A stretch of 35,429 nucleotides of DNA from an uncultured Clostridia bacterium (GTDB taxonomy: Bacteria > Bacillota > Clostridia > Christensenellales > HGM11417). Shown one piece after another: positions 1 through 18,104 of the stretch. How positions within the stretch are numbered: the first letter of the stretch is position 1; every line of letters starts with the position of its first letter. A program made the translations under genes and the position numbers. Under the pieces are notes generated by a model. The model was not told where the DNA came from. It saw only the letters and a list, made by a program, of their open reading frames with translations, and ran no database searches. The DNA lies in assembly GCA_944332455.1 (NCBI GenBank), contig CALVJY010000023.1:1-35429 (forward strand), written 5' to 3'.

Positions 1-125
1 TTTTGAGAGGGGAAAAACGTTGCAGAGCTTTGCCAAAGGCAAAGTGAACAACGGTTGTCCCCTCAAGTCCGGCCGAAATTCGCCAAAGGCGAATTTCGCG
101 CTTGGCCGGAGCGTCGCAGGCCGGC
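1..125. repeat. R1 double-hairpin repeat element (copy 1). Hairpin 1: GAGGGGAAAAACGTTG...CAACGGTTGTCCCCTC with an inner hairpin CTTTGCCAAAGGCAAAG. Hairpin 2: TCCGGCCGAAATTCGCC-AAA-GGCGAATTTCGCG..GGCCGGA
   Basis: Near-identical copy at 35345-35429 (same orientation); hairpin-2 copies at 35185-35245 and 34325-34385, and in inverse orientation at 17345-17405. Stems differ between copies but stay paired (GCC/GGC vs CGC/GCG vs TTTTGCC/GGAAA). Confidence 0.7.
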
Positions 126-139: not shown

Positions 140-3100
140 TTACTCTTTGATCATCTCCACTGCCTCGGTCAGCTTGACCGAGACCATTTTGGAGACCCCT
201 TTTTCCTCCATGGTCACGCCGTAGATGACGTCGGCGCGCTCCATGGTGGGCTTTTTGTGGGTGATGACGATGAACTGGGTGTCCTGGCTGAACTTTTTCA
301 GATACCGGGCAAAGCGGTCGGTGTTGGCGTCGTCCAGGGCGGCCTCGATCTCGTCCAGCACGCAGAAGGGCATGGGCCGCAGCTTTAAGATGGCGAACAG
401 GATGGCGATGGCGGTGAGCGCCTTTTCGCCGCCCGAGAGCAGGGTGATGCTCTGCAGCTTTTTGCCCGGGGGTTCGGCCACGATGTCCACGCCGGCCGAG
501 AGCGGATCGCCGTCCTCGGGCTCGGTGAGCACCAGCTTGGCGTTTCCGCCCCCGAACAGCTCCTTGAAGACCCGCTGGAAGTTGACCGAGATGTCGGTAA
601 AGCCCCGGTTGAAGCGCTCCAGCATTTCGGTGGTCAGCTCGGAGATGATCTGTTTGAGGTCGGCCTCGGCCTTGTCCAGATCCTCCTTCTGCACGGCCAT
701 TTCGTCGTAGCGCTCCTTGACGGCCTTGAAGTCGTCGATGGCGTTGACGTTGACGTAGCCCAGCGCGGAGATCTGTTTTTTGGTGCGGTTGATCTCGGAG
801 GAGGCGCCTTCGGCCTGGTAGCCGGGATCCCGCTGGGCCGAAGCGGCCTCGAAGTCCAGGCCGTAGTCCTCCTGGATCTTGACGGCCAGATTTTCCATGT
901 CGGTGTCCACCTTGACCATGGAATTTTCCTCGCGGTACTTGCGCTCGGTCAGACGGGAGACCTCCTCGGCCAGTTCGCCGCGGCGGCGGTCCTTTTCGGC
1001 CAGGTCCTCCTGCATGGTCCGCTTGCGCTCGTCCAGGTTGAGGAGTTCGGCCTTGATCTCGTCCAGCTTGGCCTGGGCCCCGCTGTCGATGAAGACCTGC
1101 TCGGCCGCCTTCTCGAGGTCGGCCAGGGTGGCGGTCAGATTGTCATGCTCCTCGTCCAGCCGCTGCCGGCGCTCGGCCCGGCTCTGCTCGGCCTCGGAAA
1201 GCCGCTCGGCCTCGGCCCGGAGGTTGAGGCCGGCGTTCTTCAGGTCGGCCATGCGCACCTTCAGCTCGGTCATGCGCTCGTGGGCGGCGTCCCGCTCCCG
1301 CTTGAACTGCTCGAACTCCTGCTTGCGGCGGTTGGACTCCGAAGTGGCCGAATCCTTCTGCAAAAGCACCGAGCTCTCCAGCTCGTCCACCTGCTTCAGG
1401 TCGGATTCCAGCTTGTCCAGCCGGGCGCCCAGGGCGTAGTTCTGATCGGCAAGGGCGGCATAGTCCCGCTCCCGCTCCTCCAGAAGGTAGCGGGTGCGCT
1501 CCTCCTTCTCGCTCTCCCGGGCGATCTCCACCTCCAGCTCGCGGACGGCGGAGGAGAGTTCCTCGGCCCGTCCGGCGGTTTCGGCGAGCTTGGATTCGCC
1601 CCGCTCGGCGGCGGCCTTCCACTCGGTCAGCTTTTCGGCCGCCTTTTTCAGGTTCTCCCGCAGGTCGGACAGCTCGCGCTCCCCGGAGAGCAGGTTGGAG
1701 GCCTCGGCCTTGCGGGAGCCGCCGGTCATGGCGCCGAAGGGGTGGATGACGTCCCCGTCCAGGGTGACGATGCGCACCGAATAGTTGCACTTGCGGGCCA
1801 GCTTGACGGCGTTGTCCAGGTTGTCGGCCACAGCCGTCCGGCCCAGCAGGCTGGCGTAGATCTGCTTGTGTTCGGGGGCGAACTGCACCAGATCCACGGC
1901 CACCCCCAAAAAGCCGTCCACGGTGGAAAGCAGCTTTTTGACCGGCTCGTCCAGCACCCGGCCCTTGACGGTCTCCACGGGCAGGAAGGTCACCCGGCCG
2001 TAACGCTTTTCCTTCAGGTAGGCGATCAGGGCCTTGGCGTCGGCCTCCCGGGGGACGATGACGTTCTGCATCCCCTGGCCCAGGGTGACGTCCACGGCCA
2101 CCTCGTACTTTTGGGGCACGCTCATCAGATGGGCCACGGTGCCCGAGATCTTTTCGGAAAGCTCGGGGTGCCGCTTGGCGTCCGAGAGCAGCATGCGCAC
2201 GCTCATGGAGTAGCCCTCGAAGTTCTCCTGGATGCGGCTGAGCAGCTTTTCCCGGGCCTGCATGTCGGTGATGCGGTTTTCCAGCGCGGAAACGCTCTTG
2301 GTGACCTCCTGGAGCTTGAGCGAGATCTCCTCCCGCTTCAGGTCCAGCCTGCGCTGTTCGTTCAGGCGCTCGCCGCGGACGGATTCCAGCTCGCCCCGGC
2401 GGGCGCGGACCTCCTCCAGCTCGGCCTCGAAGCCCCGCTGTTCGGTCTCCACGGCGGCCAGCTTGGCCTTCAGGTCCTCCCGCTGCTCGCCGAGGGCCTT
2501 CTTTTCGGAGACCAGCGAGGCATAGTTGGCCTTGATGTCGGACAGCCGCTCGATCTGGCTGACCATTTCGGCCTGCGAACTTTCGGTCTCGGTCTCGCCC
2601 CGGCTGATCATCTCCACGATGTCCAGATAGCGCTTGTCGGCGGCGGCCAGCTCCTCGGTAAGCGCCGCCTCCTCGGCGGCGTTCCGCGCGCTCTGTTCCC
2701 GGTTCTGTTCCAGGGCGGCGGCGGCCTCCTCGGCGGCGGCCAGCAGGGCCTCCCGCTCCCCCTCGTTCTTTTCCAGGGTCTCGGAGAACATCCGGATGCG
2801 CTCCCGGATGAGGCGGAGTTCGCCGGACTGCTTTTCCAGCCCCAGCGAGAGGGCCAGCTGCTCGTCCCGCTTTTGGGCGATCTCCCCGTCCAGGCCGTTC
2901 ATCCGGGCCATGAGGGCGTCATACTGCTCGGAGGTCTTCCGGGATTCGGCGGTCTTGTCCCCGATCTCCTCCTCCAGCTCGGCGATGCGGGCCCGGATCT
3001 GATCCTTGACCTCGTTGACCGACTCGAACTGGTGGATGAAGTAGTTGATCTCGTGATACTTCAGGTGGTCCTTCAGCTCCAGGTAGGTCCTGGCGTCCGC

Positions 3101-3727
3101 GGACTGCTTTTCCAGGGGGCGGAGCTGGCGCTCCAGCTCGGTGATGATGTCGTTGAGGCGGAGCAGGTTGTCGTGGGTGCGGGCCAGCTTGCGCTCGGTC
3201 TCCACCTTGCGGGCCTTGAACTTGGAGATGCCGCAGGCGTCCTCGAAGATCCCCCGCCGGTCCTCGGGCTTGGAGGTGATGATCTCGTCCACCTTGCCCT
3301 GGCCGATGATGGAATAGCCCTCCTTCCCCGCCCCGATCTCCCGGAGCAGGTCCACGATGTCCTTCAATCGGGCGGGCTGGCGGCTGACCATGTACTCGCT
3401 CTCCCCCGAGCGGTACAGCTTGCGGGTGAGGATGAGCTCGTCCAGATCCAGCGCCACCTCCCGCTTGGTGTTGTCGAACACCAGGGAGACCTCGCTGTAG
3501 GAGAGGGATTTGCGGGCGGCGGTGCCGCTGAAGATGACGTCGGTCATGCTGTTGCCCCGCAGGGTCTTGGCGCTCTGTTCGCCCAGCACCCAGCGGATGG
3601 CGTCGGCCACATTGGACTTTCCGCAGCCGTTGGGCCCCACGATGGCGTTGACCCCGTCCTCGAACTGCAGCTCCAGCTTGTCGGCAAAGGATTTGAAGCC
3701 GTACATTTCGATGCGTTTGAGTTTCAA
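140..3727 (-). CDS. smc: Chromosome segregation/condensation ATPase SMC
   Basis: 1195 aa. N-terminal MKLKRIEMYGFKSFADK..GPNGCGKSN Walker A; long coiled-coil middle; C-terminal LSGGEKALTAIAILFAI..LDEIEAALD signature/Walker B. Overlaps rnc by 4 nt (ATGA). Confidence 0.95.
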   Translation of the reverse strand: MKLKRIEMYGFKSFADKLELQFEDGVNAIVGPNGCGKSNVADAIRWVLGEQSAKTLRGNSMTDVIFSGTAARKSLSYSEVSLVFDNTKREVALDLDELILTRKLYRSGESEYMVSRQPARLKDIVDLLREIGAGKEGYSIIGQGKVDEIITSKPEDRRGIFEDACGISKFKARKVETERKLARTHDNLLRLNDIITELERQLRPLEKQSADARTYLELKDHLKYHEINYFIHQFESVNEVKDQIRARIAELEEEIGDKTAESRKTSEQYDALMARMNGLDGEIAQKRDEQLALSLGLEKQSGELRLIRERIRMFSETLEKNEGEREALLAAAEEAAAALEQNREQSARNAAEEAALTEELAAADKRYLDIVEMISRGETETESSQAEMVSQIERLSDIKANYASLVSEKKALGEQREDLKAKLAAVETEQRGFEAELEEVRARRGELESVRGERLNEQRRLDLKREEISLKLQEVTKSVSALENRITDMQAREKLLSRIQENFEGYSMSVRMLLSDAKRHPELSEKISGTVAHLMSVPQKYEVAVDVTLGQGMQNVIVPREADAKALIAYLKEKRYGRVTFLPVETVKGRVLDEPVKKLLSTVDGFLGVAVDLVQFAPEHKQIYASLLGRTAVADNLDNAVKLARKCNYSVRIVTLDGDVIHPFGAMTGGSRKAEASNLLSGERELSDLRENLKKAAEKLTEWKAAAERGESKLAETAGRAEELSSAVRELEVEIARESEKEERTRYLLEERERDYAALADQNYALGARLDKLESDLKQVDELESSVLLQKDSATSESNRRKQEFEQFKRERDAAHERMTELKVRMADLKNAGLNLRAEAERLSEAEQSRAERRQRLDEEHDNLTATLADLEKAAEQVFIDSGAQAKLDEIKAELLNLDERKRTMQEDLAEKDRRRGELAEEVSRLTERKYREENSMVKVDTDMENLAVKIQEDYGLDFEAASAQRDPGYQAEGASSEINRTKKQISALGYVNVNAIDDFKAVKERYDEMAVQKEDLDKAEADLKQIISELTTEMLERFNRGFTDISVNFQRVFKELFGGGNAKLVLTEPEDGDPLSAGVDIVAEPPGKKLQSITLLSGGEKALTAIAILFAILKLRPMPFCVLDEIEAALDDANTDRFARYLKKFSQDTQFIVITHKKPTMERADVIYGVTMEEKGVSKMVSVKLTEAVEMIKE

Positions 3728-5208
3728 TGCTTTTTCTCCTTGGACGACTTCTTTTTGCCCTTCTTATCCGACGGGGGCAGCATCAGCAGCTCCAGCGCGT
3801 CCCGGGCCGCGGCCTGTTCGGCCGCCCGTTTGCTCTTGCCCCGGGCCTGGGCCAGCATGACCCCCGAAAAGCTGACCCGCACCGAAAATTCGGGGTCATG
3901 CGAGGGCCCGGCCTGTCCCAGCGTCTCGTAGACCGGGTTCTGACGGTAGTGTTTCTGACAGTATTCCTGCAGCCTGGACTTGAAGTCCTCCCGCGGCTCC
4001 TCCGGCGGCAGGGCCCGTCCGGCCCCGGCGCCCGCAGCGCTCTGCTCCTTCCGGACCTCCGGCTCCCGGCGGCCCTTGCTCTTCTGCCCCTCTTTGGGGT
4101 TCTGTCCGGAATCCTGCCCGGCGGGGCGGACCTTCCGGGACTGTCCGGCGGGGGCCTCCTTCTGCCCGCGGCCCTTTCCGTTCCCGGCTGCCTCCGGACG
4201 GCCCTCGGGCTGTCCGGGCGCCGGCCTTCCGCTCCCCTTCTTCTGACCGCCGCTCCCGGGGCGGGCCTCCTTCGCGTTCTCGCTCTTTGTGCGGATGGCA
4301 GGCTCCGCCCGCTTTTTCTCCTTCCGCGGCCCGTTGGCCTCGGCGGGCTCTCCCCTCTTCCCCTGCCCGCGGGAGGGCCCGGCCGGATCCCCCTTCTTTT
4401 TCCCGTTCTCCCGGGGAAGGGCGCCCTGCTCGGGCTTGCGCTCGGCCTGTTCCCCCCGGAACTCGAACACGGGGGCCCCGAAGGTGGGGCGGGAACGCTT
4501 CTGCGCGGCGGCAAAAGAGGTGGTCGGGTCGTCCTTGCGGGGGCGGCCCTTCTTCTTTTTGGGGACCTCGAGGACAAAGGTCTGGGGCTGCTCGGTGAAG
4601 ATCAGCTCCTCCTCTTCCTCCTCGGGCGGGTGCTCGGCCTTGCCCAGGAACATGGGAAATCCCTGATAAGATGGATGTCCCGCCCCGGCCGGCTCCTGCT
4701 TTTTGGGCTTTTGCGGGGCTTTTTCGGGCTTTTCGGGCTTTCCGGCCGCCCGGATGCGATCCCCCAGGGCCCGGAACACAAAGGCCCGGGCGGGCTCCAT
4801 TCCCCCGTCGAGGTAGATGGCGGCCAGCACGGCCTCCAGCAGGTCCCCCTTGGCCCGGTGGTTACGGGTCTTTTCGGCCTCGGCGCCCACCCCGAAGATG
4901 ATGTGCTCGTGCAGGCCCAGCTTTTCCACGGCCTCGGCGCAGGGGGGCTTGGAGACGATCTCCGCCCGCTTTTGGGTCAGCTCGCCCTGGTCGGCCTCCG
5001 GCAGCGTCCGGAACAGTTCCTCGGCCACCACGAAGTTTAAGATGGCGTCCCCCAGAAATTCCAGCACCTCGTTGTTTTTGGGCTTTTCGCCCGAGCGCTG
5101 CTGGATCTCGTTGCTGTAGGAGGCGTGGGTGAAGGCGCGGTAGATCAGCTCCTTGTCCCGGAACTCATAGTGCAGTTTTTCTTCTACGTCCTGTAAATCG
5201 AATATCAT
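3724..5208 (-). CDS. rnc: Ribonuclease III with ~250-aa low-complexity (K/P/G/E/R/A-rich) linker inserted between the catalytic domain and the dsRBD
   Basis: N-terminal FTHASYSNE..LEFLGDAILNFVVAEELF (RNase III signature) and DLLEAVLAAIYLDGG. C-terminal dsRBD: SRLQEYCQKHYRQNPVYETLGQAGPSHDPEFSVRVSF...KRAAEQAAARDALELL, followed by a Lys-rich tail. The intervening ~250 residues are low complexity. Gene order plsX-rnc-smc as in Firmicutes. Confidence 0.88.
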   Translation of the reverse strand: MIFDLQDVEEKLHYEFRDKELIYRAFTHASYSNEIQQRSGEKPKNNEVLEFLGDAILNFVVAEELFRTLPEADQGELTQKRAEIVSKPPCAEAVEKLGLHEHIIFGVGAEAEKTRNHRAKGDLLEAVLAAIYLDGGMEPARAFVFRALGDRIRAAGKPEKPEKAPQKPKKQEPAGAGHPSYQGFPMFLGKAEHPPEEEEEELIFTEQPQTFVLEVPKKKKGRPRKDDPTTSFAAAQKRSRPTFGAPVFEFRGEQAERKPEQGALPRENGKKKGDPAGPSRGQGKRGEPAEANGPRKEKKRAEPAIRTKSENAKEARPGSGGQKKGSGRPAPGQPEGRPEAAGNGKGRGQKEAPAGQSRKVRPAGQDSGQNPKEGQKSKGRREPEVRKEQSAAGAGAGRALPPEEPREDFKSRLQEYCQKHYRQNPVYETLGQAGPSHDPEFSVRVSFSGVMLAQARGKSKRAAEQAAARDALELLMLPPSDKKGKKKSSKEKKH

Positions 5209-5245
5209 ACTCTCCGTCCGGCCGGCGCCGGCTCCTTTGGTCGGC

Positions 5246-6259
5246 TTACTCGGCGGCCGCGGCGGCCAGATTGGCGGCGATCTCGTCCACCATGCCGGAT
5301 TCGGCCAGCTTTTTGGCCTGCAGCAGGCTGGAGCTGATGGTCACGGCCTTGGAGGACCCGTGCGACTTGACCACCACTTTGGTCAGGCCCACCAGCAGCG
5401 CCCCGCCGTTGCTGGCGTAGTCCATGCGCTTGGCCACCTTCTTAAAGCCGCCCTTCAGCAGCATGGCCCCCATCTTGTTCTTGAAGGAGGACAGCATCTC
5501 CTCCTTCAGCAGGGTCATCATGGCCTTTGCCATGCCCTCGTAGGACTTCAGGCAGATGTTCCCGGCAAAGCCGTCGGTCACCGCCACGTCGAAGTCCCCC
5601 GAAAGCAGTTCCCGGGCCTCCATGTTCCCCACGAACCGGATGCCGGGCAGGGCCTTCAGCAGCGGAAAGGCCTCCTTGTTCAGCTCGTTGCCCTTCTTGT
5701 CCTCGGTGCCGTTGGACAGCAGCGCCACCCGGGGCTCTTTGACCCCGCAGTAGGCCTTGACGTAGGCCCCGCCCATCAGGGCGAACTGGCAGAGGTTGAG
5801 GGGCTTGCAGTCCACGTTGGCCCCGCAGTCCACCAGCGCCACCTGTCCCCCGGTCAGGGTGGGCAGCAGCGGCGCCAGCGCCGGGCGGTTGACCCCCCGG
5901 ATGCGCCCCAGCTTGAACAGCCCGGCGGTCAGCACCGCGCCGGTGCTCCCCGCCGAGACCAGGCCCCCGACCTCGGGATCCTCCTTCAGCCGCTCAAAGG
6001 CCCGCACCAGCGAAGAATTCTTCTTTGCCCGGACCGCCTCGGTGGGCGATTCGTCGTTGGTGATGACCTCGGGGGCGTCCACCACCTCGGTCCTGGCCCG
6101 GATCCCCGGATCCGCCGCCGACAAAAGGCCGGTCAGGGTCTCCCCCTTTCCGGTCAGCACCAATTTCAAGGCGGGATCGGCCTCCAGGGCCAGGATCCCC
6201 CCCTTTACGATCTCCTCGGGGGCGTGATCTCCCCCGAATGCGTCCAATATCAATTTCAT
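5246..6259 (-). CDS. plsX: Phosphate acyltransferase PlsX
   Basis: MKLILDAFGGDHAPEEIVKGG... typical PlsX N-terminus; 337 aa. RBS-like GGAAGGATGA upstream on the minus strand. Confidence 0.93.
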   Translation of the reverse strand: MKLILDAFGGDHAPEEIVKGGILALEADPALKLVLTGKGETLTGLLSAADPGIRARTEVVDAPEVITNDESPTEAVRAKKNSSLVRAFERLKEDPEVGGLVSAGSTGAVLTAGLFKLGRIRGVNRPALAPLLPTLTGGQVALVDCGANVDCKPLNLCQFALMGGAYVKAYCGVKEPRVALLSNGTEDKKGNELNKEAFPLLKALPGIRFVGNMEARELLSGDFDVAVTDGFAGNICLKSYEGMAKAMMTLLKEEMLSSFKNKMGAMLLKGGFKKVAKRMDYASNGGALLVGLTKVVVKSHGSSKAVTISSSLLQAKKLAESGMVDEIAANLAAAAAE

Positions 6260-6292
6260 CCTTCCGTTCTCCTTTTTTTAAGGCACGCCCTA

Positions 6293-6455
6293 ATGAATTA
6301 AAATCTTTTTCCCGGATCGGCTCTTTCCTCCGACTCCGGCAGGTTCCCTTGCGTTTTTTTTAAATTACGCCCTATCCAAATTAAGTCTTTTCCCCGGATC
6401 GGCTCTTTCCTCCGACTCCGGCAGATTTCCTGATATTTTTTTAATTATGCCTTAT
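6293..6455. repeat. Tandem ~85-bp direct repeat (2 full copies plus a partial third). Each copy holds a hairpin CCGGATCGG-ctctttcctc-CCGACTCCGG followed by a T-rich run on the plus strand
   Basis: Copies start near 6297 and 6383. The shared string ...TTTTCCCGGATCGGCTCTTTCCTCCGACTCCGGCAG(G/A)TT(C/T)CC... is visible directly. Lies between the metalloprotease stop and the plsX start. Confidence 0.75.
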
Positions 6456-6467
6456 CCGATTAAAATC

Positions 6468-8972
6468 TCATCTTCTGCGGCGCCGCCTTGCGCCCTTGTA
6501 CTTTTTCCGGGTGTCCACCACCACGTAGTAGTAGACGGCTCCCACGAAGATCACCGCCATCACAAAGAGGGTCCAGCCCGGCAGCCGGAGGGCGCCAATG
6601 TTGCGGACGGCGGTCAGGCTGAGGCCGGAGACGCTGCCCCCCACGGTGTAGGGTTCCACCGAATGGGAGCGCCCCCGGAAGGTGAGCGTGGTGCCGCGGG
6701 CCACCCGTTCCAGGCTGAACCGGCCGGCCTCGTCGGTCTGTCCGGCCTCCAGCCCGTCGGCGTAGATGGTGAAGATCTCCCCCGACGGCTGGCCGTCCTC
6801 CCCGAGGATCTGCCCGGAGACCGCGCAGTAGCCGTACACCCGCAGGGTGACCCGGCCGTCTGCGGCCCGGACCGCGCCCGGGCCCTCGCCCAGGTCCTCC
6901 AGGGTGAAGTTTTCCAATCTGACGGTGATCAGGTCGGTGTCGTAGAGTTCGGCCGCGATCACCCCGTTTGCAAAGGTAAAGTCCGAAAAGGGCTGGCCGT
7001 TCAGCAAAAGCGTCGGGATCTCGGCCGAAAAGGCCGCCCCCGCCTCGTCGGTCAGGGCGATCTCCAGCCGCACCGGGGTCTTGGCCGCGGCGATCAGTTC
7101 GCCCAGCCCGGCGTTCTCCCCGGTCACGGTCACCTCGGGCAGCTCGTACCCCCGGACAAAAAAGCTCAGCAGATCCCCCTCCCGCACTTCCAGCGAAAAT
7201 TCGGGGCTTTGGGCGGTCAGAACATAGTCGCCGTTGCGGAAGATCTGCACCCCCTCCTCGGGGAAGCGGTCAAAGACAAAAGTCCCGCTGACCTCGAACC
7301 AATCGGGCTCCGGCCGCAGGTCAAAGCTGACCGAGCCGTCCTCGTTCAGCACGATGTTTTCCAGCACCGCCCGGCTGTTCAAAATCCCCTCCCCGGTCAG
7401 GTAGCCGAACACGTTTTCGGTCTCGGCGGCCTCGGCCGAGCCGAAGGACTCGCCTTGGGTGAACACCCCGTCGAAGAGGTAAGTGGAGGAAAGGATCGAC
7501 TCGCGGCGCAGCACGAAGATCTCGTTGTTCCCGTCGATGTTGCCCCCGCTCTCCCCGGCGGCTCCGGGATCCACCCGGTAGCACAGCAGCCCGGTCTCGC
7601 CCGGGCGGAGGAAGGGAAGCTCCCGGTCGATGCCGTCCGCGGTGCGGGTCTTGGCCTCGATGACGAAGAACTGCCCCTCATGCTCCCCGAAGCGGAGGGC
7701 GGACGCCCCCTCGCCCCGAGGGTACAGGGTGTAGCGGATCTGTCCGGCGGAGGCCTCGGCGATCTCGGTCCAGCCGAACTTCTGCCGGTACCAGGCGTTC
7801 AGTCCCTGGGGGGCGCCGGTGGTCACCCCCATGATGTCCCAGACGCCCACGGGGACTTCGGCCCCCTCGGCCGGCTGGTAGTGGTAAAGGTCGGTCACCC
7901 CGAAGCTGCCGCCGCCGGGGACCAGATCGTCCAGCATGTGGATGGTCTCGTGGCAGAGCACGCCGGCCTCGAAGTCCTCGGAGGAGCCTTTGACGTACTC
8001 GTCGGCCAGCAGCACGTAGTTTTTGACCTGATTGCCGTCCAGGGTCAGCTCCCGGCAGAGGGTCTCCCGCTCCTCCTGCGGCCAGCCGCTGAACTCGAGG
8101 GGCGAGAGGGCCTGCAGGGTGCGGGCGGAGCTGACCAGCTCCCACTTGTGAGGCCAGAACGCCGCGGTGTTGGCCGCCGTGTTGTCGGGGGTCAGTCCGC
8201 CGCCGCTGACGTAAAAGGTCAGAAGATCGCTCTCGGCGTCGCGGTTGAGATCCAGCGCCCCCCGGCCGAGATCCTCGGCCAGGCCGTCGCCGTCCAGATC
8301 CACCGCCCCTCCGCTCAGCTCGGCCACCAGGGCCTGTCCCTCGTCCGAACCCAGCAGGGCGGTCAGGGCATTGCGCACCAGAAGCTGTTCCCGGCGGAGC
8401 TTTTCCAGGCTTTCGGCCGGATCTTCGGCGGCGCACAGGCAGACCATGCCGTCCGAGCCGTCTTCGTCGCAGTTTTCGCCGCAGGTCCCGCTGCAGCCGC
8501 AGTCATAGACCTTCAGCTCGCCTTCCGTGTACTGCCAATAGCCCTCGGGATTCGAGGGGGAATAGGGCAGATAGTACGCCTGGGTGTGCCCGTCCACATA
8601 GACCCCGGGCACCTCGACGGTGTGCAGGGTGAAGGCCGACCCGGAGATCTCCGCAAAGTAATTCTTGACCCCCAGCGGCTGCTCGTTGAACAGCGAAAGG
8701 GTCTGTTCCCGCCGGGTCAGGGTCTCTCCCTCGGGGACCTCGGCAAAATAGCCCTCCTCGCCCGAGCCCCCCATTTCGATGAAGAACAGCAGGTTGAGGG
8801 CGGTCCCGGTCAGGCCGGAAGAGCCGGCCGCGCTCTCCCCGGTCGGATCGGAAGAGATCGCGCCGTCCGCGATCTCCCCGGAAGAGCCGTCTGTTTCGGC
8901 CCGGAGGGGAAGCGGGGAGCAGACGGCCGCCAGCCAAAGCACCGCCGTCAGCAGCATGATGAACTTTTTCAT
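6468..8972 (-). CDS. Secreted zinc metalloprotease (HExxH; M6/InhA-like, tentative) with carboxypeptidase-regulatory-like beta domains and a C-terminal membrane anchor
   Basis: Start placed at the internal MKKFIMLLTAVLWLAAVCSP (signal peptide) preceded by AAGGAGGA; the track's start at 9026 is a probable 18-aa over-extension. LCHETIHMLDD HExxH motif. SGQILGEDGQPSGEIFTIYADG...GRFSLERVARGTTLTFRG resembles CarboxypepD_reg. The C-terminus LPGWTLFVMAVIFVGAVYYYVV + KKYKGARRRRRR is a hydrophobic segment plus a basic tail. Confidence 0.6.
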   Translation of the reverse strand: MKKFIMLLTAVLWLAAVCSPLPLRAETDGSSGEIADGAISSDPTGESAAGSSGLTGTALNLLFFIEMGGSGEEGYFAEVPEGETLTRREQTLSLFNEQPLGVKNYFAEISGSAFTLHTVEVPGVYVDGHTQAYYLPYSPSNPEGYWQYTEGELKVYDCGCSGTCGENCDEDGSDGMVCLCAAEDPAESLEKLRREQLLVRNALTALLGSDEGQALVAELSGGAVDLDGDGLAEDLGRGALDLNRDAESDLLTFYVSGGGLTPDNTAANTAAFWPHKWELVSSARTLQALSPLEFSGWPQEERETLCRELTLDGNQVKNYVLLADEYVKGSSEDFEAGVLCHETIHMLDDLVPGGGSFGVTDLYHYQPAEGAEVPVGVWDIMGVTTGAPQGLNAWYRQKFGWTEIAEASAGQIRYTLYPRGEGASALRFGEHEGQFFVIEAKTRTADGIDRELPFLRPGETGLLCYRVDPGAAGESGGNIDGNNEIFVLRRESILSSTYLFDGVFTQGESFGSAEAAETENVFGYLTGEGILNSRAVLENIVLNEDGSVSFDLRPEPDWFEVSGTFVFDRFPEEGVQIFRNGDYVLTAQSPEFSLEVREGDLLSFFVRGYELPEVTVTGENAGLGELIAAAKTPVRLEIALTDEAGAAFSAEIPTLLLNGQPFSDFTFANGVIAAELYDTDLITVRLENFTLEDLGEGPGAVRAADGRVTLRVYGYCAVSGQILGEDGQPSGEIFTIYADGLEAGQTDEAGRFSLERVARGTTLTFRGRSHSVEPYTVGGSVSGLSLTAVRNIGALRLPGWTLFVMAVIFVGAVYYYVVVDTRKKYKGARRRRRR

Positions 8973-9129
8973 TGGCCGTCCTCCTTGTTCTGTTTTGGGC
9001 GGACCCTTTTTCTTCTGCGCCCGCAAAAAATTTTGAAGCGACGCCGCCGGAAGATCAAAGGTGTCGCCCGGCGGCCTCTGTGCAGGTCACCTAACAGTAT
9101 ACCATATTTTTCGGGATTTGACAAACCTT

Positions 9130-9300
9130 TGGGTGGCACCGCCACCTTTTTGTACGCCCGCTCTAATTTTCCTTTTTCCACATTTTCGCGCCCGCACAAA
9201 ATTCCTCTTTTCTCCGACTGCTGGGGGTAGGTGCCTAAGGCACCTTTTTGTGCGCCCGCTCCGATTTTCCTTTTCCCGGCTCCCCCGCCTTACATCTGAA
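9130..9300. repeat. Two direct copies of hairpin + T-run units (GGTGGCACCGCCACC-TTTTTGTACGCCCGCTC-TAATTTTCCTTTTTCC / AGGTGCCTAAGGCACCT-TTTTGTGCGCCCGCTC-CGATTTTCCTTTTCCC)
   Basis: Same sequence family, in inverse orientation, as ...GAGTGGGCGT(G/A)CAAAAAGGTGCC(G/T)GTGGCACC... in the blocks at 12820-12860 and 17920-17960. Confidence 0.6.
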
Positions 9301-9366
9301 CATCGGCCAAAACCCGTCGCAGGAGATCAAGTATATTCCCCCGAATATTCAAGAAGTGGGCGTGCC

Positions 9367-12087
9367 TTAAAAAAGATTAAGTGCCAGGGGGAAGAGGTAG
9401 AGCGCGGCGAACACGCCGGCGGCCAGCAGGGCGCAGCAGACGAGGGCGGCCTTTTGCGCGGCCGGGGTCATGCGGGAGAGCAGGGCCTCGGCCCTCTCCC
9501 CCGCCCGGCCGAAGAGCCGGAAGTTTTCTTTGCCAAACCATGCGGCGAGGCGGCGGGAAAGCCCCGCCCGGCAGCGGAAGGCCGTCCACAGCCCGCTCAG
9601 CAGCAGGCCGAGGCCGGTGAGGACCCCGCCCGCGACGAGGCCGGGCGAGCGGTAGACGATCTCCACCGTGTTGAGCCCCTCCTCCAGGGGCAGGGAGAGC
9701 AGGCCGAAGACCTCGGAGACCTCCACGGTCCGGCCGTTGACCCGGGCGGAAAAGCCGGCGTCCCAGGGCAGGGCCACCAGCAGATGTTCCCCGGCCCCGG
9801 CCTCGATCTCCCCGCTCAGCCGGTTGGGCGAGGAGGAGAGCCCCTCGCCGGGGTCGGCGATCAGCTCGGCCAACCGGGCCTCGTCCAGGCCGTACACCCC
9901 GAAGGAGGAACAGGTGAAGGACTTGTGCAGATAGACCTTGACCTGCACGGTCTCGTCCTCGAAGCTGCCCAGGCAGATCAGGCCGTTCTGGGACTGGGAG
10001 GGATAGTCTGCGGCGGCCAGGCGGTTGTTGACGTAGACCGTGGCCGCGCCGTTGATCTCCTCCCGCAGGGCGTTGCTGACCCGGTCGAAGAGGTCGAAGT
10101 AGAGGGTCTGCCGGCCCTCGACCTCGATCTCCCAGCTGACGAAGGCCGTGTTGTCCGAGACCGCGAAGGAAAAGCCCTCCGCCCCGCTCTGGTCGATCAC
10201 GCCCCGGCTGTCGGTAAAGTCATAGGCCCGCATCAGCTCCTCCCCGAACAGCAGGTCGGAGAGGGCGTTCTGGGCGGCCAGGCGGTCGAGGGGAAGTTCG
10301 GTCTGCCCGCCGGGCAAAAAGGTCACCCCCAGGGGGAGAACCCACGGGCTTTCAGTAATGGCATAGTTCGGGGTCTGAAAGACGGCGTCCCCGCCCCCCG
10401 AACGGGAGATGACGTACTTGTGGGAGAACAGGGCGTCGGAGAGCAGGGTGCCGCCGTGGGAGCCGATCTCCATCCAGTAGCCCGAATAGCCCAGCTTTTT
10501 GGCGGTGTCCATCAGGGTGGCCTGGGTCATGGAGGTGTAGTGGGCCAGCGAGGGATAGCCGATCCCGCCCACCCAGTTGACGTCGAAGAGCTTGCGCTCC
10601 ATCTTGACCCGGTAAAAGCTTTCGTCGTCGAGGGCCTCCGCCAGCTCGGCCACGGCCGCGTAGTCGGTCGGCTCTTCGGCGGGCGGGATCAGGTAGACGC
10701 CGCAGCCGAACACGGCCTCCACGGCGGCCAGCGCGCACAGGCACAGGCCGGTGACCGCCCGGAATCGCCACCCCACCCGGTCCAGGGCAAACAGGCACAG
10801 GCCGGCCCCCAGGGCCACCAGGTAGTAGGTCAGCAGGGCGGCAAAGGAGGCCTCGTCCCCCCACAGGGTGGAAGAATAGGCGTCCATTTCCCCGACGTGG
10901 GCGGCCAGCCAGTCGGAAGAGAACCGGACCATGACCAGGCAGACCCCAACCGACAACAGGGTGCCGACAAGCTGCAGGGGCAGACAGTTCTGACGCACCG
11001 GGGCGGCAAGCTCCGGGGCGGCCTCCCCCTCTTTTCGCGCCCCGAGGGCGTCGGCGGCCAGGGAGAGCCCGCAAAACAGGGTGATAAAGGCATAGCGGGT
11101 GGGAAAGGCCATGTAGTCCCCGGTCTGCCACATCTTGTTGACCGGCTCCACAAAGAGGGGGATGAGGGTGAGCGCGAACAGGATCAGCATGGGGTTTTTC
11201 CGGTCCTTCCACAGGGTGTACCCCACGAAGGGCAGGAGGGGAAAGAGGCAAAAGACGGTGGGCACCGTGGTCTCGATGGGGGCGGTCAGGCTGCTGCCGG
11301 CCAGAATGGAGAACAGGCCGCGCATGCGGGCCGAGGCCCCGTAGGCGGACAGCATGGGCAGCCAGACCACGGCGGAGCAAAGCGCCGCCCCGCCGCAGGC
11401 GCGCAGAAAGCGCAGGGCGGCCGCCTTCCGGTTGGGCAGGCCGATCAGCCGGATCCCGGCGTAGAGGGCGAAAAAGCAGACCACCGGAAAGCTGAGGTAG
11501 AGGTTGAGCACGACCTGCAGGGCCAGCAGGATCCCGAACCATCCCCCCTTCCCCCGGTCGAACAGCCGTTCAGCGGCCAGCAGCAGGAGGGGGAACAGCA
11601 TCACCGCGTCCAGCCACATGGGATTCTGGAAGTACATCAGGCAGTAGCCCGAAAAGGCGTAGAACACCGAAAGCCCGGCGGCCGCGAAGGGATGCACCCC
11701 CGGCCGGGCCAGCCGGAAAAAGACCGAGGCGGTCAGGGCCGCGGCGCACAGCTTGCACAGCACCAGGATGTTGAGGAAAAGGGCCATGTCGGCCCGCTCC
11801 CAAAACAGGGCGAGAAAGGTGAAGGGCGAGCAGAGAAAGAAGAAAAAGACCCCCCAGAAGTTCATGCCGCCCCCGTTCAGCATGCTCAGCAAAAAGCCGT
11901 CTTTTCCCGCCAGCATGTCCAGAAACTCGTTCAGCAGAGGGAGGAACTGCTGGTCCATGTCGCCCCAGGCCAGGCTCTTGTCCCCGAAGGGATACAGGCC
12001 GCCCGAGGCATAGATGCCCAGAAGCAGGGCCGCCGTCATCACCGGGGCCAGAAAGATCATGATGTTTTTAAAAATTTTGTCTTTCAT
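9367..12087 (-). CDS. YfhO-family polytopic membrane protein (putative glycosyltransferase/lipid-linked glycan transferase)
   Basis: N-terminal MKDKIFKNIMIFLAPVMTAALLLGIYASGGLYPFGDKSLAWGDMDQQFLPLLNEF...NFWGVFFFFLCSPFTF matches the YfhO N-terminal pattern; many TM segments, then a large C-terminal extracytoplasmic domain. Start ambiguous: the track start 12147 (MCRF..) runs into a structured repeat, so the MKDK start at 12087 is preferred. No strong RBS at either. Confidence 0.75.
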   Translation of the reverse strand: MKDKIFKNIMIFLAPVMTAALLLGIYASGGLYPFGDKSLAWGDMDQQFLPLLNEFLDMLAGKDGFLLSMLNGGGMNFWGVFFFFLCSPFTFLALFWERADMALFLNILVLCKLCAAALTASVFFRLARPGVHPFAAAGLSVFYAFSGYCLMYFQNPMWLDAVMLFPLLLLAAERLFDRGKGGWFGILLALQVVLNLYLSFPVVCFFALYAGIRLIGLPNRKAAALRFLRACGGAALCSAVVWLPMLSAYGASARMRGLFSILAGSSLTAPIETTVPTVFCLFPLLPFVGYTLWKDRKNPMLILFALTLIPLFVEPVNKMWQTGDYMAFPTRYAFITLFCGLSLAADALGARKEGEAAPELAAPVRQNCLPLQLVGTLLSVGVCLVMVRFSSDWLAAHVGEMDAYSSTLWGDEASFAALLTYYLVALGAGLCLFALDRVGWRFRAVTGLCLCALAAVEAVFGCGVYLIPPAEEPTDYAAVAELAEALDDESFYRVKMERKLFDVNWVGGIGYPSLAHYTSMTQATLMDTAKKLGYSGYWMEIGSHGGTLLSDALFSHKYVISRSGGGDAVFQTPNYAITESPWVLPLGVTFLPGGQTELPLDRLAAQNALSDLLFGEELMRAYDFTDSRGVIDQSGAEGFSFAVSDNTAFVSWEIEVEGRQTLYFDLFDRVSNALREEINGAATVYVNNRLAAADYPSQSQNGLICLGSFEDETVQVKVYLHKSFTCSSFGVYGLDEARLAELIADPGEGLSSSPNRLSGEIEAGAGEHLLVALPWDAGFSARVNGRTVEVSEVFGLLSLPLEEGLNTVEIVYRSPGLVAGGVLTGLGLLLSGLWTAFRCRAGLSRRLAAWFGKENFRLFGRAGERAEALLSRMTPAAQKAALVCCALLAAGVFAALYLFPLALNLF

Positions 12088-12149
12088 GTCCGTATCATGT
12101 ACCGTTTTAACATGTCTCCGTCCAAAACGTGCCGCAAAGCGGCACATAT

Positions 12150-12960
12150 CGAGCGGCAGCGCCGCCGGGCTGGAACCCCCGTAAAGAATGAAGGGTAAAA
12201 AGTTACTGTTCTCGCTCTGTCTTTCAGTCGATATGTTTCCCTGACGGGAAACTCGATATGTTTGCCAAAGGCAAACTTGATATTTGCCCGCACAGCGGGC
12301 AATCGATATGAATGGCCTCGTTTATTGTCTTTTCCCTCTATAATTTGTCACTCCATATTGAAGCAAAGATGAAGGCAGAGCCCCCCCAACCCCGGCCATT
12401 CGTATTGGATGAAAACAGAACAAAAGCTATGAATTTATAACCGCACTGCTTTCAATGTGTTTTGTCCACAACGTGACGCGAAGCGGCACATATCGAGCAA
12501 AGTGAGCGCAGCGGAACTTTGCATATCGAATGGCCGTCAGGCCATATATCGAGTTTGCCGAAGGCAAACATATCGACATAAAACTTATCGCAGGAACAAA
12601 TAATCAATATTCCCGCTTTCTAAGAGTGGGCGCGCCTTCCTGGCGGCGATGCCGCCCAGGAACAAAGAATTAGTTTCCCCTCTCCATACGAGTGGGCGTT
12701 CTCGCCCGGTGCCGCCAGCACCCGCATATCGAATGGCCGTCAGGGCATATATCGAGTGCCGCATTGCGGCACATATCGACTTAAATTCATCGCAGGATAA
12801 ATCAATCATTTTTCCGCTTCATACGAGTGGGCGTGCAAAAAGGTGCCGGTGGCACCCCTGGCGGTACCTATCAATCTTAGCACAAAAGCCGGCATTTTGC
12901 AAGAAATCTTTCCCATGTCCCCTAAGGATTTGACGAATTTCCCGAAACATGCTATACTAG
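12150..12960. repeat. Structured leader block A (~800 bp), paralogous to block B at 17345-18000. Contains three ATATCGA/hairpin arrays (12228-12316; 12489-12580; 12724-12780), AGGAACAAA...ATACGAGTGGGCG units and GGTGCC..GGCACC hairpins
   Basis: Direct alignment by eye with 17345-18000. Shared long strings include GTTCTCGCTC..TCTTTCAGTCGATATGTTTCCCTG(A)CGGGAAACTCGATATG, CCCGGCCATTCGTATTGGAT.AAAACA.A.CAAAAGC.AT..ATTTATAACCG.ACTGCTTTCAATGT, CATATCGAATGGCCGTCAGG(G)CATATATCGAGTGCCGC.TTGCGGCACATATCGAC. Confidence 0.85.
12930..12958 (+). promoter_or_regulatory. Sigma-70-type promoter: TTGACG - 17 nt - TATACT
   Basis: ttgacgaatttcccgaaacatgcTATACT read directly; ~125 nt upstream of the ATG at 13084. 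Confidence 0.6.
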
Positions 12961-12965
12961 AGAAA

Positions 12966-13035
12966 GGCGGGAACCACCTCTCTCCGGCTTTGCCGGACTG
13001 ATCCTCCTCCTTTTTGGTTTCCCGCCTTTCTTTTT
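12966..13035 (+). promoter_or_regulatory. Leader terminator/attenuator-like structure: GGCGGGAACC...(inner hairpin CCGGCTTTGCCGG)...GGTTTCCCGCC followed by TTTCTTTTT
   Basis: 9/10-bp stem with a ~40-nt loop containing a second hairpin, then a U-run, sitting between the promoter and the RBS AAAGGAGGG of the DUF1113 gene. Confidence 0.4.
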
Positions 13036-13083
13036 GAGCCGATCCGATTAAATTTTTAAACAAAACGGAAAGGAGGGAAGCGG

Positions 13084-14154
13084 ATGCAGCTCTTTTTGCA
13101 GTTGGCCTGCCTGTTTGCGGTGGGCGCGGTGATCGGGTGGTGCATCGAACTGGTGTTCCGCCGCCTGTTCACGGCCAAAAAATGGATCAACCCCGGGTTT
13201 CTGAACGGGCCCTATCTGCCCCTGTACGGCTTCGGGACGGTGATCCTGTACGAGATCAGCGACCTGCCCCTTGCCGTGGGGTGGAAGATCGTCCTGTTCG
13301 GCGTGCTGCTGACCGCCGTGGAATATGCGGCGGGCATTCTGTTCATCAAGGGCATGAAGATCAAGCTGTGGGATTACTCCAAGCGGTGGGGCAACATCCA
13401 GGGCATCATCTGCCCCCTGTTCTCCCTGCTGTGGACGGCCGCCGGCACGCTGTTTCTGTTCTTTGTCTATCCCTGGCTGCAGGGCGTGCTGGCCTGGTTT
13501 GCCGAGCGCGCCCTCTCCCCCTTCTTCCTGGGGGTCTTTTACGGGGTCTTTCTGGTGGACCTGGGGGCCAGCTTCGGGCTGGGCGCCCGCCTGCGCAAGC
13601 TGGCCGCCGAGGCCAGGGAGACGCTGGCCTACGAGGAACTGAAGGCCTATCTGCGCCAGCGGGCCAAAAAGCTCCGCAAAAAGGTCAGCTTTCTGCTCCC
13701 CTTCCGCTCCGACCGCTCCCTGAAGGAGAACATCCGCGCCTTTCTGGACAGCCGCCGGCACCGGGAAGGGCCCGTGACGGCAGGCGGACCGGACGGCGAG
13801 GCCCCGGCCTCCCCGCCGGAAGGCCCTGCGCCGGAAGATCCGGGCTTTGAAAAGATCATCCCGACCGCCCCGGAGCGCGGAGAGCCGATCCCGCAGCCGG
13901 AAAGCCTGCCGGAAGATCCGGCCGGGGAGAGCGCGAAGGCGGCCGGCCGAGCGGAATGCGGAGGGCCGGCCCTTCAGCCGGAGGGCAGGCCGGACCCGGA
14001 CGCCGGGGGATCCCTGAAGGACCCGATCGCCGAACGCGGAGAGGCGGAAGCCACCGCGCCGGAAGATCCGGATTTTGAGCAGGCCCGGAACACTGAAACT
14101 TCCGCCCCGAAGGGGCCGAAAACCTGTGACCGGCCGGGCAAAAAGGGCGATTAA
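13084..14154 (+). CDS. DUF1113-like (putative ABC-transporter type IV) polytopic membrane protein with ~150-aa disordered C-terminal tail carrying P/E/A-rich repeats
   Basis: LFAVGAVIGWCIELVFRRLF...GPYLPLYGFGTVILYEI...WDYSKRWGNIQGIICPLFSLLW pattern; the tail contains repeated A(P)EDP(G/D)FE.. motifs. RBS AGGAGGG. Confidence 0.6.
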   Translation: MQLFLQLACLFAVGAVIGWCIELVFRRLFTAKKWINPGFLNGPYLPLYGFGTVILYEISDLPLAVGWKIVLFGVLLTAVEYAAGILFIKGMKIKLWDYSKRWGNIQGIICPLFSLLWTAAGTLFLFFVYPWLQGVLAWFAERALSPFFLGVFYGVFLVDLGASFGLGARLRKLAAEARETLAYEELKAYLRQRAKKLRKKVSFLLPFRSDRSLKENIRAFLDSRRHREGPVTAGGPDGEAPASPPEGPAPEDPGFEKIIPTAPERGEPIPQPESLPEDPAGESAKAAGRAECGGPALQPEGRPDPDAGGSLKDPIAERGEAEATAPEDPDFEQARNTETSAPKGPKTCDRPGKKGD

Positions 14155-14219
14155 AACGGGCAAAAACGGTTTATATATAAAAGTTAAGGCTATGGAAAAA
14201 TACCGCTTGAGGTGACGAC

Positions 14220-14912
14220 ATGGAGCTGATCGAATGCAAGGATCTGTGCAAGACCTACGGCACGGGCGATCTGGAAGTCCGGGCCCTGGACGGGGCCTCC
14301 TTTTCGGTGGAAAAAGGGGAGTTCGTGGTCATTTTGGGCCCCTCGGGGGCGGGCAAGAGCACCCTTTTAAACCTGCTGGGGGGCATGGACACCGCCACCT
14401 CGGGTACCCTGCGGGTGGGCGAAAAGACAGTGACCGCCCTCTCCGAAAAGGAGCTGAGCGCATACCGCAGAAAGGACATCGGCTTTGTCTTTCAGTTTTA
14501 CAACCTGATGGCCAACCTGACCGCCCTGGAAAACGTGGAGCTGGCCCAGGGCGAGACCGGCATGACCGCCGAAGAGGCCCTTTCCCTGGTGGGTCTGGAA
14601 AAGCGGAAGAACAACTTTCCGCCCCAGCTTTCGGGCGGGGAACAGCAGCGGGTGGCCATTGCCCGGGCCATCGTCAAAAACCCCCTGCTTTTGCTGTGCG
14701 ACGAGCCCACGGGGGCGCTGGACAGCAGGACGGGGCGGGCCATTCTGGGGCTGCTTTCGGACCTGTGCCGCAAGGATGGCATGACCGTGATCGTGGTCAC
14801 CCACAACGCCGAGCTCGGAAAGCTGGCCGACCGGCTGATCCGGGTCAATGACGGGAAGATCGTGGAAAACGCGCTGCAGACCGCGGCCTCCCCGGAGGAC
14901 ATCACATGGTGA
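14220..14912 (+). CDS. ABC transporter ATP-binding protein (MacB/LolD/FtsE-like)
   Basis: GPSGAGKSTLLNLLGG Walker A; LSGGEQQRVAIARA signature; LLLCDEPTGALD Walker B. Overlaps the permease gene by 7 nt. Confidence 0.92.
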   Translation: MELIECKDLCKTYGTGDLEVRALDGASFSVEKGEFVVILGPSGAGKSTLLNLLGGMDTATSGTLRVGEKTVTALSEKELSAYRRKDIGFVFQFYNLMANLTALENVELAQGETGMTAEEALSLVGLEKRKNNFPPQLSGGEQQRVAIARAIVKNPLLLLCDEPTGALDSRTGRAILGLLSDLCRKDGMTVIVVTHNAELGKLADRLIRVNDGKIVENALQTAASPEDITW

Positions 14913-17341: not shown

Positions 17342-17344
17342 GCG

Positions 17345-18000: not shown

Positions 18001-18003
18001 ACA

Positions 18004-18070
18004 TAGAGATAGAACAGATAAAATGTTAACATAGGGTGGTTTTCAGCCCTTCCTAGAGATAGAACAGATA
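18004..18070 (+). promoter_or_regulatory. Two 17-bp direct repeats TAGAGATAGAACAGATA (18004-18020; 18054-18070) flanking a 10-bp perfect palindrome ATGTTAACAT (18023-18032). Candidate metal-regulator operator/promoter of the ZIP gene
   Basis: Read directly; 35-100 nt upstream of the ATG at 18105 (RBS GAGGAGGTG). Confidence 0.45.
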
Positions 18071-18104
18071 TGTCTGACGGAAAAGACGAGGAGGTGAAGA
18101 AAAC

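Follow-up and report, generated by a model that had tools for sequence, protein, structure and literature searches.

The window, by which we mean the whole 35,429-nt stretch of DNA analysed here, carries smc at its left end, the gene of an FtsX-type permease near its middle and TraX close to its right end, and most of its longer intergenic spacers are filled by repeats of a hairpin-forming type, R1. Both edges of the window consist of such a repeat: positions 1-76 and 35353-35429 match at 76 of 77 positions, the sole difference being an extra G in the loop of hairpin 1 (GCCAAAGGC vs GCCGAAAGGC). The core CCTCAAGTCCGRCC together with hairpin 2 occurs five times in the window (copies A to E), the fifth being cut by the window end. 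A search for the core motif CCTCAAGTCCGGCC with at most two mismatches placed these five copies at 61, 34341, 35193 and 35414 on the plus strand and at 17401 on the minus strand; a further match with two mismatches, at 26966, lies inside a coding gene and is spurious. When three mismatches were allowed there were 19 matches, compared with 8.4 +/- 3.2 in shuffled sequence, and none of 100 shuffles reached 19. The parts of the five copies are as follows.

5 to 64, plus strand: hairpin 1 of copy A, from the fold and a covariance-model match (5-113, 128 bits), with basal (GAGGGGA/TCCCCTC), middle (CGTTG/CAACG) and apical (CTTTGCC-AAA-GGCAAAG) helices, all three of which covary
55 to 67, plus strand: constant junction TTGTCCCCTCAAG leading from hairpin 1 to hairpin 2; no other stretch of the family is as well conserved
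68 to 110, plus strand: hairpin 2 of copy A, with outer stem TCCGGC/GCCGGA, inner stem C-GAAATTCGCC/GGCGAATTTC-G, loop AAA and a 6-nt bulge, CGCTTG, on the 3' side
111 to 139, no strand: spacer from hairpin 2 to the smc stop codon (140-142, minus strand), read directly and compared with the sister-species contig L218; its sequence resembles half of a hairpin 2 copy that has decayed
17352 to 17394, minus strand: hairpin 2 of copy B (covariance-model match 17349-17478, 50.9 bits)
17395 to 17437, minus strand: junction CTTGAGGGGACAA of copy B, then, in place of the standard hairpin 1, hairpins GGCGGCAGCGCCGCC and GGGCAGGAACGCCC
34323 to 34347, plus strand: GGCGGTGCTGCCGCC hairpin and junction TTCCCTCAAG of copy C
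34348 to 34380, plus strand: hairpin 2 of copy C, with stem TCCGACCGATTT/AAATCGGTCGGA (weak covariance-model match, 17.3 bits)
35200 to 35242, plus strand: hairpin 2 of copy D, with inner stem AAAATTCCGC/GCGGAATTTT (covariance-model match, 53 bits)
35257 to 35287, plus strand: hairpin 3, GCAAAACGGCGG - ACATGCG - CCGCCGTTTTGC, its loop constant and its stem varying by copy
35293 to 35319, plus strand: hairpin 4, CACGTTTTTAC - GGTGA - GTAAAAACGTG, its loop constant and its stem found in four variants
35320 to 35337, plus strand: purine-rich constant linker GGTGGAAAAGGGTGAATC, kept in the sister species
35338 to 35356, plus strand: hairpin 5, AAAAACGC-GAA-GCGGTTTT, elsewhere AAAAGGC-AAA-GCCTTTT or AAAAACAC-ATC-GTGTTTTT
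35357 to 35417, plus strand: hairpin 1 of copy E, with one extra G in the apical loop compared with copy A (covariance-model match 35357-35429, 78.5 bits, its 3' end cut)
35421 to 35429, plus strand: start of hairpin 2 of copy E; the window ends 2 nt into the variable inner stem, and complete copies exist in contigs L199 and L214

Much of what the original prediction had read from the sequence was borne out. The direct repeats at the two window edges are nearly identical, with one indel between them, and the second hairpin recurs, once in inverted orientation, at coordinates that we have corrected to those listed. The claimed switch of the outer stem from TCCGGCC/GGCCGGA to TCCGACC/GGTCGGA is a compensated change and is seen in the copy at 34348. 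Inner stems had been said to change while staying complementary, and GAAATTCGCC/GGCGAATTTC, AAAATTCGCC/GGCGAATTTT and AAAATTCCGC/GCGGAATTTT are indeed perfectly complementary; one cited example, GATTTTGCC/GGAAATC, was only partly right, as the hairpin in that copy consists of a simple 12-bp stem without a bulge and a 9-nt loop. Components of R1 are also found inside block B of the window, where hairpins GGCGGCGCTGCCGCC and TTTGCCAAAGGCAAA are present. The placement of all copies directly after gene 3' ends held for copies A (30 nt from the smc stop codon), B (about 10 nt past the stop codon of the FtsX permease, gene end 17341) and C (9 nt from the TraX stop at 34390-34392, minus strand, and identical in contigs L199, L200 and L201), but not, inside the window, for copies D and E, which lie upstream of the TraX start. 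In L218 the end of hairpin 2 is 5 nt from the smc stop.

The double hairpin, taken in the original prediction to be the element as a whole, proved to be the 3' end of something larger. Contig L199, from another strain, extends past the right edge of the window, and the spacer upstream of its TraX gene, about 1.1 kb long, holds three head-to-tail units of the layout that is also seen at window 35200-35429; this counterpart of the D/E array extends as far as the 3' end of the following gene. Hairpins 1 and 2 are the 3' part of this unit of approximately 220-275 nt, which contains five hairpins joined by constant linkers and is longer where hairpin 1 has an insert. The order is hairpin 2, hairpin 3, hairpin 4, purine-rich linker, hairpin 5, hairpin 1, TTGTCCCCTCAAG and again hairpin 2, with AGCGATG between the leading hairpin 2 and hairpin 3, and AAG before the closing hairpin 2. 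Hairpin 5, which follows the linker GGWGGAAARGGGTGAATC, is composed of an A-run, a short G+C stem and a T-run, and hairpin 1 is laid out as GAGAGGGGAAAAAC - stem - CAGAGC - apical part - stem - GGTTGTCCCCTC. Successive hairpin 2 starts are 221 nt apart in the window; in L199 the two distances are 222 and 273 nt. The constant parts of the unit are the junction, a CGYYTG bulge, the ACATGCG and GGTGA loops and the linker GGAAAAGGGTGAATC; the variable parts are the stems, which change freely and yet remain complementary. A coding reading was considered on account of a GGAGG and a GTG in the linker and was ruled out, since the copies differ by 1-nt indels and 50-60-nt inserts; the sequence is therefore non-coding.

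The unit is embedded in a wider set of modules whose combination differs by site (hairpins 1-5, a GGCGG hairpin, GGTGCC..GGCACC modules and ATATCGA arrays). In contigs L216, L106 and L199, hairpin 1 has other modules, 50-90 nt in length, nested in its tip. In a sub-type represented by window copies B and C and by L208 and L212, most of hairpin 1 is replaced by a GGCGGYGCTGCCGCC hairpin, and the arrangement seen in copy B recurs in the latter two contigs. The 5' flank of copy D, GCTTTCAAG, is a different module joined at TCAA. Arrays of the block B kind, in which hairpins are linked by ATATCGA, lie 5' of the unit in L199 and L214 in the same order as at window 17349-17960. R1 is one end of a larger mosaic that includes block B. 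Tandem units occur too: L199 has three ahead of TraX, and L218 has two following smc.

Structure was assessed by folding and by covariation. The fold of positions 1-135 was more stable than that of shuffled sequence on both strands (z = -6.1 plus, -5.7 minus), as was that of a 277-nt unit (z = -10.05 on one strand and -9.89 on the other), the two strands being alike. Among 15 distinct copies of hairpin 2, all 255 cells are in standard pairs, 7 of the 11 pairs of the inner stem are changed on both sides, and wobble pairs make up only 2 of the 255 cells. The last C of the outer stem covaries with the first base of what had appeared to be the bulge (C-G to T-A), so that the true bulge is CGYYTG. 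The inner-stem types form a small pool and are reused at several loci. A covariance model of hairpins 1 and 2 (109 positions, 37 pairs), built as the original prediction had suggested, gave 19 matches with E < 1e-4 in 110 kb of the lineage; it added nothing beyond the pattern searches. In the 19 copies aligned by the model, 21 of 37 pairs were changed on both sides, and 95.7% of cells were paired compared with 81% in shuffled alignments and 37-54% with slid partners, although the first figure is favoured by an alignment fitted to the model itself. Hairpins 3, 4 and 5 show the same compensatory behaviour in fewer copies. Full-length copies contain 11 G-T wobbles in the plus orientation and one A-C, equal to a wobble on the minus strand. 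This bias hints at one folding strand, but the test is weak since seven of the wobbles are one inherited position and the independent events are too few.

Copies were found at no fewer than 11 distinct genomic sites when the window and other assemblies are combined, a lower bound. The independent assemblies that carry them come from several samples and include L106 (MAG GCA_964327385.1), L199 and seven contigs of ERZ1090861 (L207-L216); identity with the window is 100% over 4220-17554 for a further contig, L107, and about 97.7% for L106. A scan of metagenomes (JGI/ENA) with the 19-nt junction returned seven true loci and three chance matches, and the true loci are seven contigs, each a different locus, all from ERZ1090861, the sole sample holding the species. 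The adjoining genes are unrelated: smc, the FtsX-type permease, TraX, DnaN, a ParA-type ATPase, an SPFH/zinc-ribbon protein, a DRTGG protein and an unknown membrane protein. At every site the module that touches the gene is hairpin 2. At seven sites a convergent gene has its stop codon 5-33 nt away from this hairpin, at three (L213, L214 and L216) the hairpin ends 5-10 nt upstream of a ribosome-binding site, and in L199 the stop codon of the upstream gene is within its loop. Where both neighbours are known (five sites), the plus orientation of the unit is antisense to both genes. Copy C is within the 3' UTR of TraX, ahead of the real terminator, a canonical one about 180 nt further on. No transposase, RAYT, Y1 transposase or integrase was present among the called genes at the sampled loci. 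TraX and an ABC-transporter operon are each bracketed by direct repeat copies. Gene callers put spurious ORFs on the repeats, and at least one real gene ends inside one.

The taxonomic range of the family is narrow. Identity of the PlsX homologue falls in steps from 99% (same species) to 88% (one sister species) to 65%. In the sister species (L218), two tandem units lie at the orthologous smc 3' end with their constant parts almost unchanged, a slightly altered junction (CCCCTTAAAGTCCGGCC) and re-compensated stems, for example ACGCCG/CGGCGG replacing ACGTTG/CAACGG. The spacer between the FtsX and ZIP genes, 763 nt long here, is only 122 nt in the sister species, where it contains a degenerate CCGGCCGACGCAAAGCC relic and no covariance-model match. 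In the next relative sampled (L220, PlsX 65% identical) the family is absent, also by covariance-model search. R1 is confined to the two sister species. Searches of GTDB representatives with the pattern TCAAGTCCGGCC-N17-32-TGGCCGGA gave 86 loci, all of them chance or coding matches and none a copy of the element (they include the zinc finger of a Flavonifractor topoisomerase and a nuclease gene of Alphaproteobacteria), but this pattern was too strict, as the sister species has TTAAAG where it demands TCAAG. Viral contigs gave coding matches only with a 15-mer and nothing with two other module patterns, and BLAST of a 722-nt array against plasmids and phages gave no match. At the gathering threshold of Rfam 15 the window had no matches, the best in E-value mode reaching 21 bits against a threshold of 100. 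In the literature, the core sequence was not found reported in a bacterial context and REP was not found linked to Oscillospiraceae.

Close strains differ at these loci. At the FtsX site, L106 has one extra whole unit (approximately 340 nt) between two direct copies of hairpin 2, and in contigs L109 and L110 the inner stem is instead GATTTTCGC/GCGAAAATC. Strains also differ in the arrays next to this site, where one hairpin stands in place of another between identical linkers, and at least one of these replacements matches a paralogous copy at window 12555-12600, which is intergenic and 5 kb away. These differences, of whole units and of swapped hairpins, fit unequal crossing-over and gene conversion between paralogues. 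Neither a clean empty-versus-filled site nor a target-site duplication was found in the compared loci, so that dispersal alone points to transposition.

The match between the window edges was itself examined as a possible assembly artefact (a collapsed repeat, or the overlap left where a small replicon was circularised), the likeness beginning at base 1 and stopping at the last base of the window. We consider an artefact extremely improbable. An overlap of circular contig ends is ruled out: the indel between the ends is not expected of a k-mer overlap, and the gene order does not close, because ftsY follows smc in L218 and, in L199, a gene other than smc lies upstream of TraX. The window also carries chromosomal genes (smc, plsX, rnc and ftsX), and the same element occurs at other loci in other samples. 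The left end falls exactly after the variable stem of hairpin 5 and the right end 2 nt into the variable inner stem of hairpin 2, where the copies begin to differ and a contig is expected to break, and other assemblies of the species likewise break in these repeats. The ends at variable stems and the other gene order in L218 and L199 indicate a contig broken by repeats and not a circle, and the edge match is most likely that of a whole contig broken inside the repeat where copies start to differ. Attempts to extend the left flank by exact-protein look-ups of SMC (with both start residues) and PlsX gave none, and a look-up of TraX gave only a short contig, again breaking at the repeat. The GC skew of the window was too flat for placement on a replichore. 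The original prediction had named confinement of the copies to this window, as an assembly artefact, as the finding that would overturn it; the copies are instead present in independent assemblies and in the sister species.

We compared R1 with the known families of hairpin repeats. REP and BIME elements are G+C-rich extragenic stem-loops at gene ends or between co-directional genes, which form mosaic clusters, are associated with recombination and are expected to give 3'-UTR hairpins (PMC3184786, PMC3733652). Like them, R1 is a mosaic of palindromic units and other short motifs in variable arrangements. The inner hairpin of hairpin 2 measures 23-25 nt, with a 10-11 bp stem and a 3-5 nt loop (8-9 bp and 4-5 nt in a REP, which is a single palindrome; PMC3733652), and is enclosed by a second stem of 6 bp and always joined to further hairpins. 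A REP is 20-40 nt long, whereas the R1 unit has five different hairpins and is approximately 220-275 nt long; REP and BIME belong to Proteobacteria, whereas the host of R1 is a Clostridia lineage. R1 also lacks GTAG, and CGTC is found only inside the 3'-side bulge (G-CGTCT-GG), which reads CGCTT or CGTTT in other copies. In contrast to the inverted dimers of REPINs and BIMEs, R1 clusters are head to tail (three units in L199, two in L106, two in L218, and D and E in the window). REPINs and BIMEs also number in the hundreds per genome, and a single-copy RAYT gene is flanked by them; the genes called in the roughly 110 kb of this lineage covered here include no Y1 transposase. A REP in the strict, GTAG/CGTC-tagged sense (PMC3733652) was therefore rejected, given the missing 5' head tag and the wrongly positioned CGTC. 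The predicted likeness to REP/BIME or to a structured-RNA family thus stands as far as R1 is multi-copy, intergenic and hairpin-forming, with compensatory stems and a mosaic clustering that is BIME-like in behaviour, and does not extend to the head tag, the inverted dimers or an Rfam family.

Among Firmicutes repeats, the bcr1 element of the Bacillus cereus group (approximately 155 bp) is described (PMC3184786, citing Okstad 2004 and Klevan 2007) as an intergenic, lineage-specific double stem-loop with compensatory changes, a distribution that varies between close strains and flanking 5-bp direct repeats. R1 shares the compensated stem-loops and the variability by strain and species; unlike bcr1, it has no flanking direct repeats, shows no sequence similarity to that element and is part of a longer multi-hairpin unit with tandem arrays and nested modules. 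In behaviour R1 is closest to REP/BIME clusters and, among Firmicutes, to bcr1, and it differs from both in its five-hairpin unit, head-to-tail arrays, nested modules, near-perfect stems and in the hairpin 2 that caps the array at the gene boundary. The BOX elements of Streptococcus pneumoniae are likewise modular and intergenic, with few sub-elements, one of which varies in number, and a stable secondary structure; the modules and host of R1 are different, and its stems vary by copy while its linkers are constant.

In the ends of IS200/IS605 elements, in PATEs and in attC sites, the shape of a folded single strand and a few fixed unpaired bases matter while stem sequence is free, and terminal inverted repeats and target duplications are lacking. 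R1 resembles them in all of these respects, and HUH enzymes are known to read hairpins (PMC6006769). R1 differs in that it lies beside core genes and not cassettes, and no TnpA, RAYT or IntI was seen at its loci. An attC site was rejected, the arms being GGGGAAAAAC / GGTTGTCCCC in hairpin 1 and TCCGGCC / GGCCGGA in hairpin 2, with no RYYYAAC...GTTRRRY and no integrase called. A MITE was likewise rejected: neither the double hairpin nor the whole unit ends in terminal inverted repeats, and no duplication is seen between the left flank, TTTT, and the right flank, which is AAAA, AAGC, GCGT or AAAT. PATEs derived from IS200/IS605 have subterminal hairpins at both ends and insert 3' of a fixed tetra- or pentanucleotide, with TnpA (Y1) encoded in the genome. 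R1 has hairpins, and the tetranucleotide TCAA, conserved 1 nt upstream of hairpin 2, is also the joint in the recombinant copy D; in the sister species, however, it reads TTAA(A). This gives only a hint of a fixed target tetranucleotide.

Our preferred reading, which we hold to be somewhat better than an even bet, is that R1 is the 3' end (hairpins 1 and 2) of a lineage-specific, non-coding, modular hairpin repeat that acts at the level of DNA and is REP/BIME- or bcr1-like. The main rival is a dedicated RNA function, with R1 as a structured RNA, either a multi-copy small RNA read from the strand on which hairpin 1 precedes hairpin 2 or a cis-acting mRNA element that could protect 3' ends, stabilise 5' UTRs or offer a platform for protein binding. 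The covariation, the conserved unpaired segments and the conservation of the smc site over two species fit a functional RNA equally well: every helix covaries, and two species with PlsX proteins only 88% identical have kept the loops, the bulge and the linker. The wobbles are almost only in the plus orientation, G-U alternates with G-C at the base of the apical stem of hairpin 1, and hairpins 3 and 4 of L218 have single G-T pairs. The sites in L213, L214 and L216, with hairpin 2 just 5-10 nt before the ribosome-binding site, and the position of copy C inside the TraX 3' UTR upstream of the real terminator point the same way. We nevertheless regard an RNA function as possible but doubtful, because no Rfam family came near threshold, promoter- and terminator-like signals were not above shuffled expectation, the neighbouring genes have no common function, and unit number and presence vary by strain and species. 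In addition, the plus orientation at the five sites noted above is antisense to both genes, so that the strand bearing the wobbles is not the mRNA strand, and stems that vary so much while remaining nearly free of wobbles (2 of 255 cells in hairpin 2) are unusual for selection at the RNA level.

Recombination sites of the attC or PATE kind, at which a structure-specific recombinase or HUH enzyme would swap cassettes or gene segments between the linkers, would account for a structure that is kept while its sequence is free, for the conserved one-sided bulge, for hairpins swapped between strains with identical linkers, for the direct copies that bracket TraX and the ABC-transporter operon, and for copy D, which looks like two modules joined at TCAA. 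We think this quite improbable, since the RYYYAAC/GTTRRRY core sites are absent, no integrase or Y1 transposase was seen at any sampled locus, the flanked genes include core genes (smc and dnaN), and the swapped hairpins have donors in a paralogue 5 kb away, so that ordinary gene conversion suffices. The position of copies directly after stop codons, and inner stems with an A-run in one arm and a T-run in the opposite arm, would also suit ordinary intrinsic terminators that have become alike by convergence. That explanation is very unlikely: no copy passed a scan for a hairpin plus T-tract on either strand, counts were not above those in shuffles, several inner-stem types end in AAAATC or AAAATG, TraX has its canonical terminator further downstream, and convergence does not explain a common 13-nt constant flank and a constant bulge.

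Under the preferred reading of a repeat acting at the DNA level, the folded single strand would be recognised by a trans-acting protein, as the combination of constant unpaired parts with free paired stems suggests, in the manner in which REP is recognised by RAYT, IS200/IS605 ends by TnpA and attC by IntI. Such a protein would seed new copies, which recombination would then amplify and reshuffle. Where copies are transcribed as part of the mRNAs of adjoining genes, for the most part antisense and in 3' UTRs or intercistronic spacers, the hairpins are probably passive 3'-end barriers, by analogy with REPs. It is also interesting to speculate, although we consider it unlikely, that R1 and the neighbouring ATATCGA arrays are acted on by an as yet undescribed system that recognises single-stranded DNA in its folded form, with the linkers, loops and bulge as its recognition code. 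The perfect hairpins would then be exchangeable cassettes, copied or repaired with their own other arm as template, and such a system would give stems that differ at many positions almost without mismatches or wobbles, hairpin swaps between strains that are 98% identical, and arrays that always end with hairpin 2 at the gene boundary.

What is new here is a strongly covarying, clearly defined family of hairpin repeats from a poorly sampled lineage of uncultured Clostridia; to our knowledge, almost nothing is known of REP-like DNA in such lineages. Since the repeats break short-read assemblies of the species and are not the same in close strains, binning, strain typing and annotation need to take account of them. 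The interest of the family would be higher if the hairpin-cassette behaviour required a dedicated enzyme, and if such an enzyme or an RNA function were found, the design of constant linkers and free stems would be a compact natural case of shape recognition.

Two arrays of short perfect hairpins lie in the window as direct repeats on either side of a three-gene ABC-transporter operon (13084-17341), and another hairpin module occurs in both orientations.

12100-12860, array of short perfect hairpins
17440-17960, array of short perfect hairpins
9131-9163, 9230-9264, 12825-12857 and 17926-17959, both orientations represented, module GGTGNC-loop-GNCACC followed by TTTTTGTRCGCCCRCTC

The array hairpins have stems of 7-8 bp and loops of 3-4 nt, and each unit carries its own stem sequence while the linker between hairpins is constant (CATATCGA / TCGATATG). 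When the arrays were compared between strains the linkers were identical, whereas individual hairpins had been exchanged (for example, GTGCCGCtttGCGGCAC versus GTTTGCCgaaGGCAAAC). One copy of the GGTGNC module was terminator-like by score.

In two related strains, gene callers placed open reading frames of 170-183 amino acids that had no Pfam match.

L106 (MAG GCA_964327385.1), 13384-13935, called ORF
L199, 5012-6590 and 8396-8917, called ORFs

The L106 ORF, which sits on the repeat array, is probably spurious.

The spacer upstream of plsX (window 6262-6425) contains an 82-nt tandem duplication whose copies are 80% identical, and this duplicated stretch aligns with related strains at approximately 82%. 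The RNase III gene, on the minus strand at 3724-5208, encodes an unusually long product of 494 amino acids made up of an N-terminal extension, the ribonuclease III domain and a dsRBD; the gene overlaps the smc start (TTG at 3727) by 4 nt.

The spacer between the FtsX and ZIP genes is 763 nt in the window's species (17342-18104), compared with 122 nt in the sister species (L221, 3349-3470). Repeat modules occupy most of the longer spacers of the window, so this lineage has undergone an expansion of its intergenic DNA.

The repeats also meet coding sequence. In L199 (525-567), hairpin 2 of the terminal unit of R1, the two-hairpin 3' end of the intergenic repeat, contains the end of the gene that lies upstream of TraX: its stop codon (544-546) and the ~13 codons that precede it. 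At the point where R1 abuts FtsX (window 17339-17352), the stop codon of FtsX reads TAG in the window and TAA in three related strains (L106, L109 and L110). The gene end lying within hairpin 2 and the stop codon difference at the R1 border together show that the repeat reshapes the 3' ends of genes.
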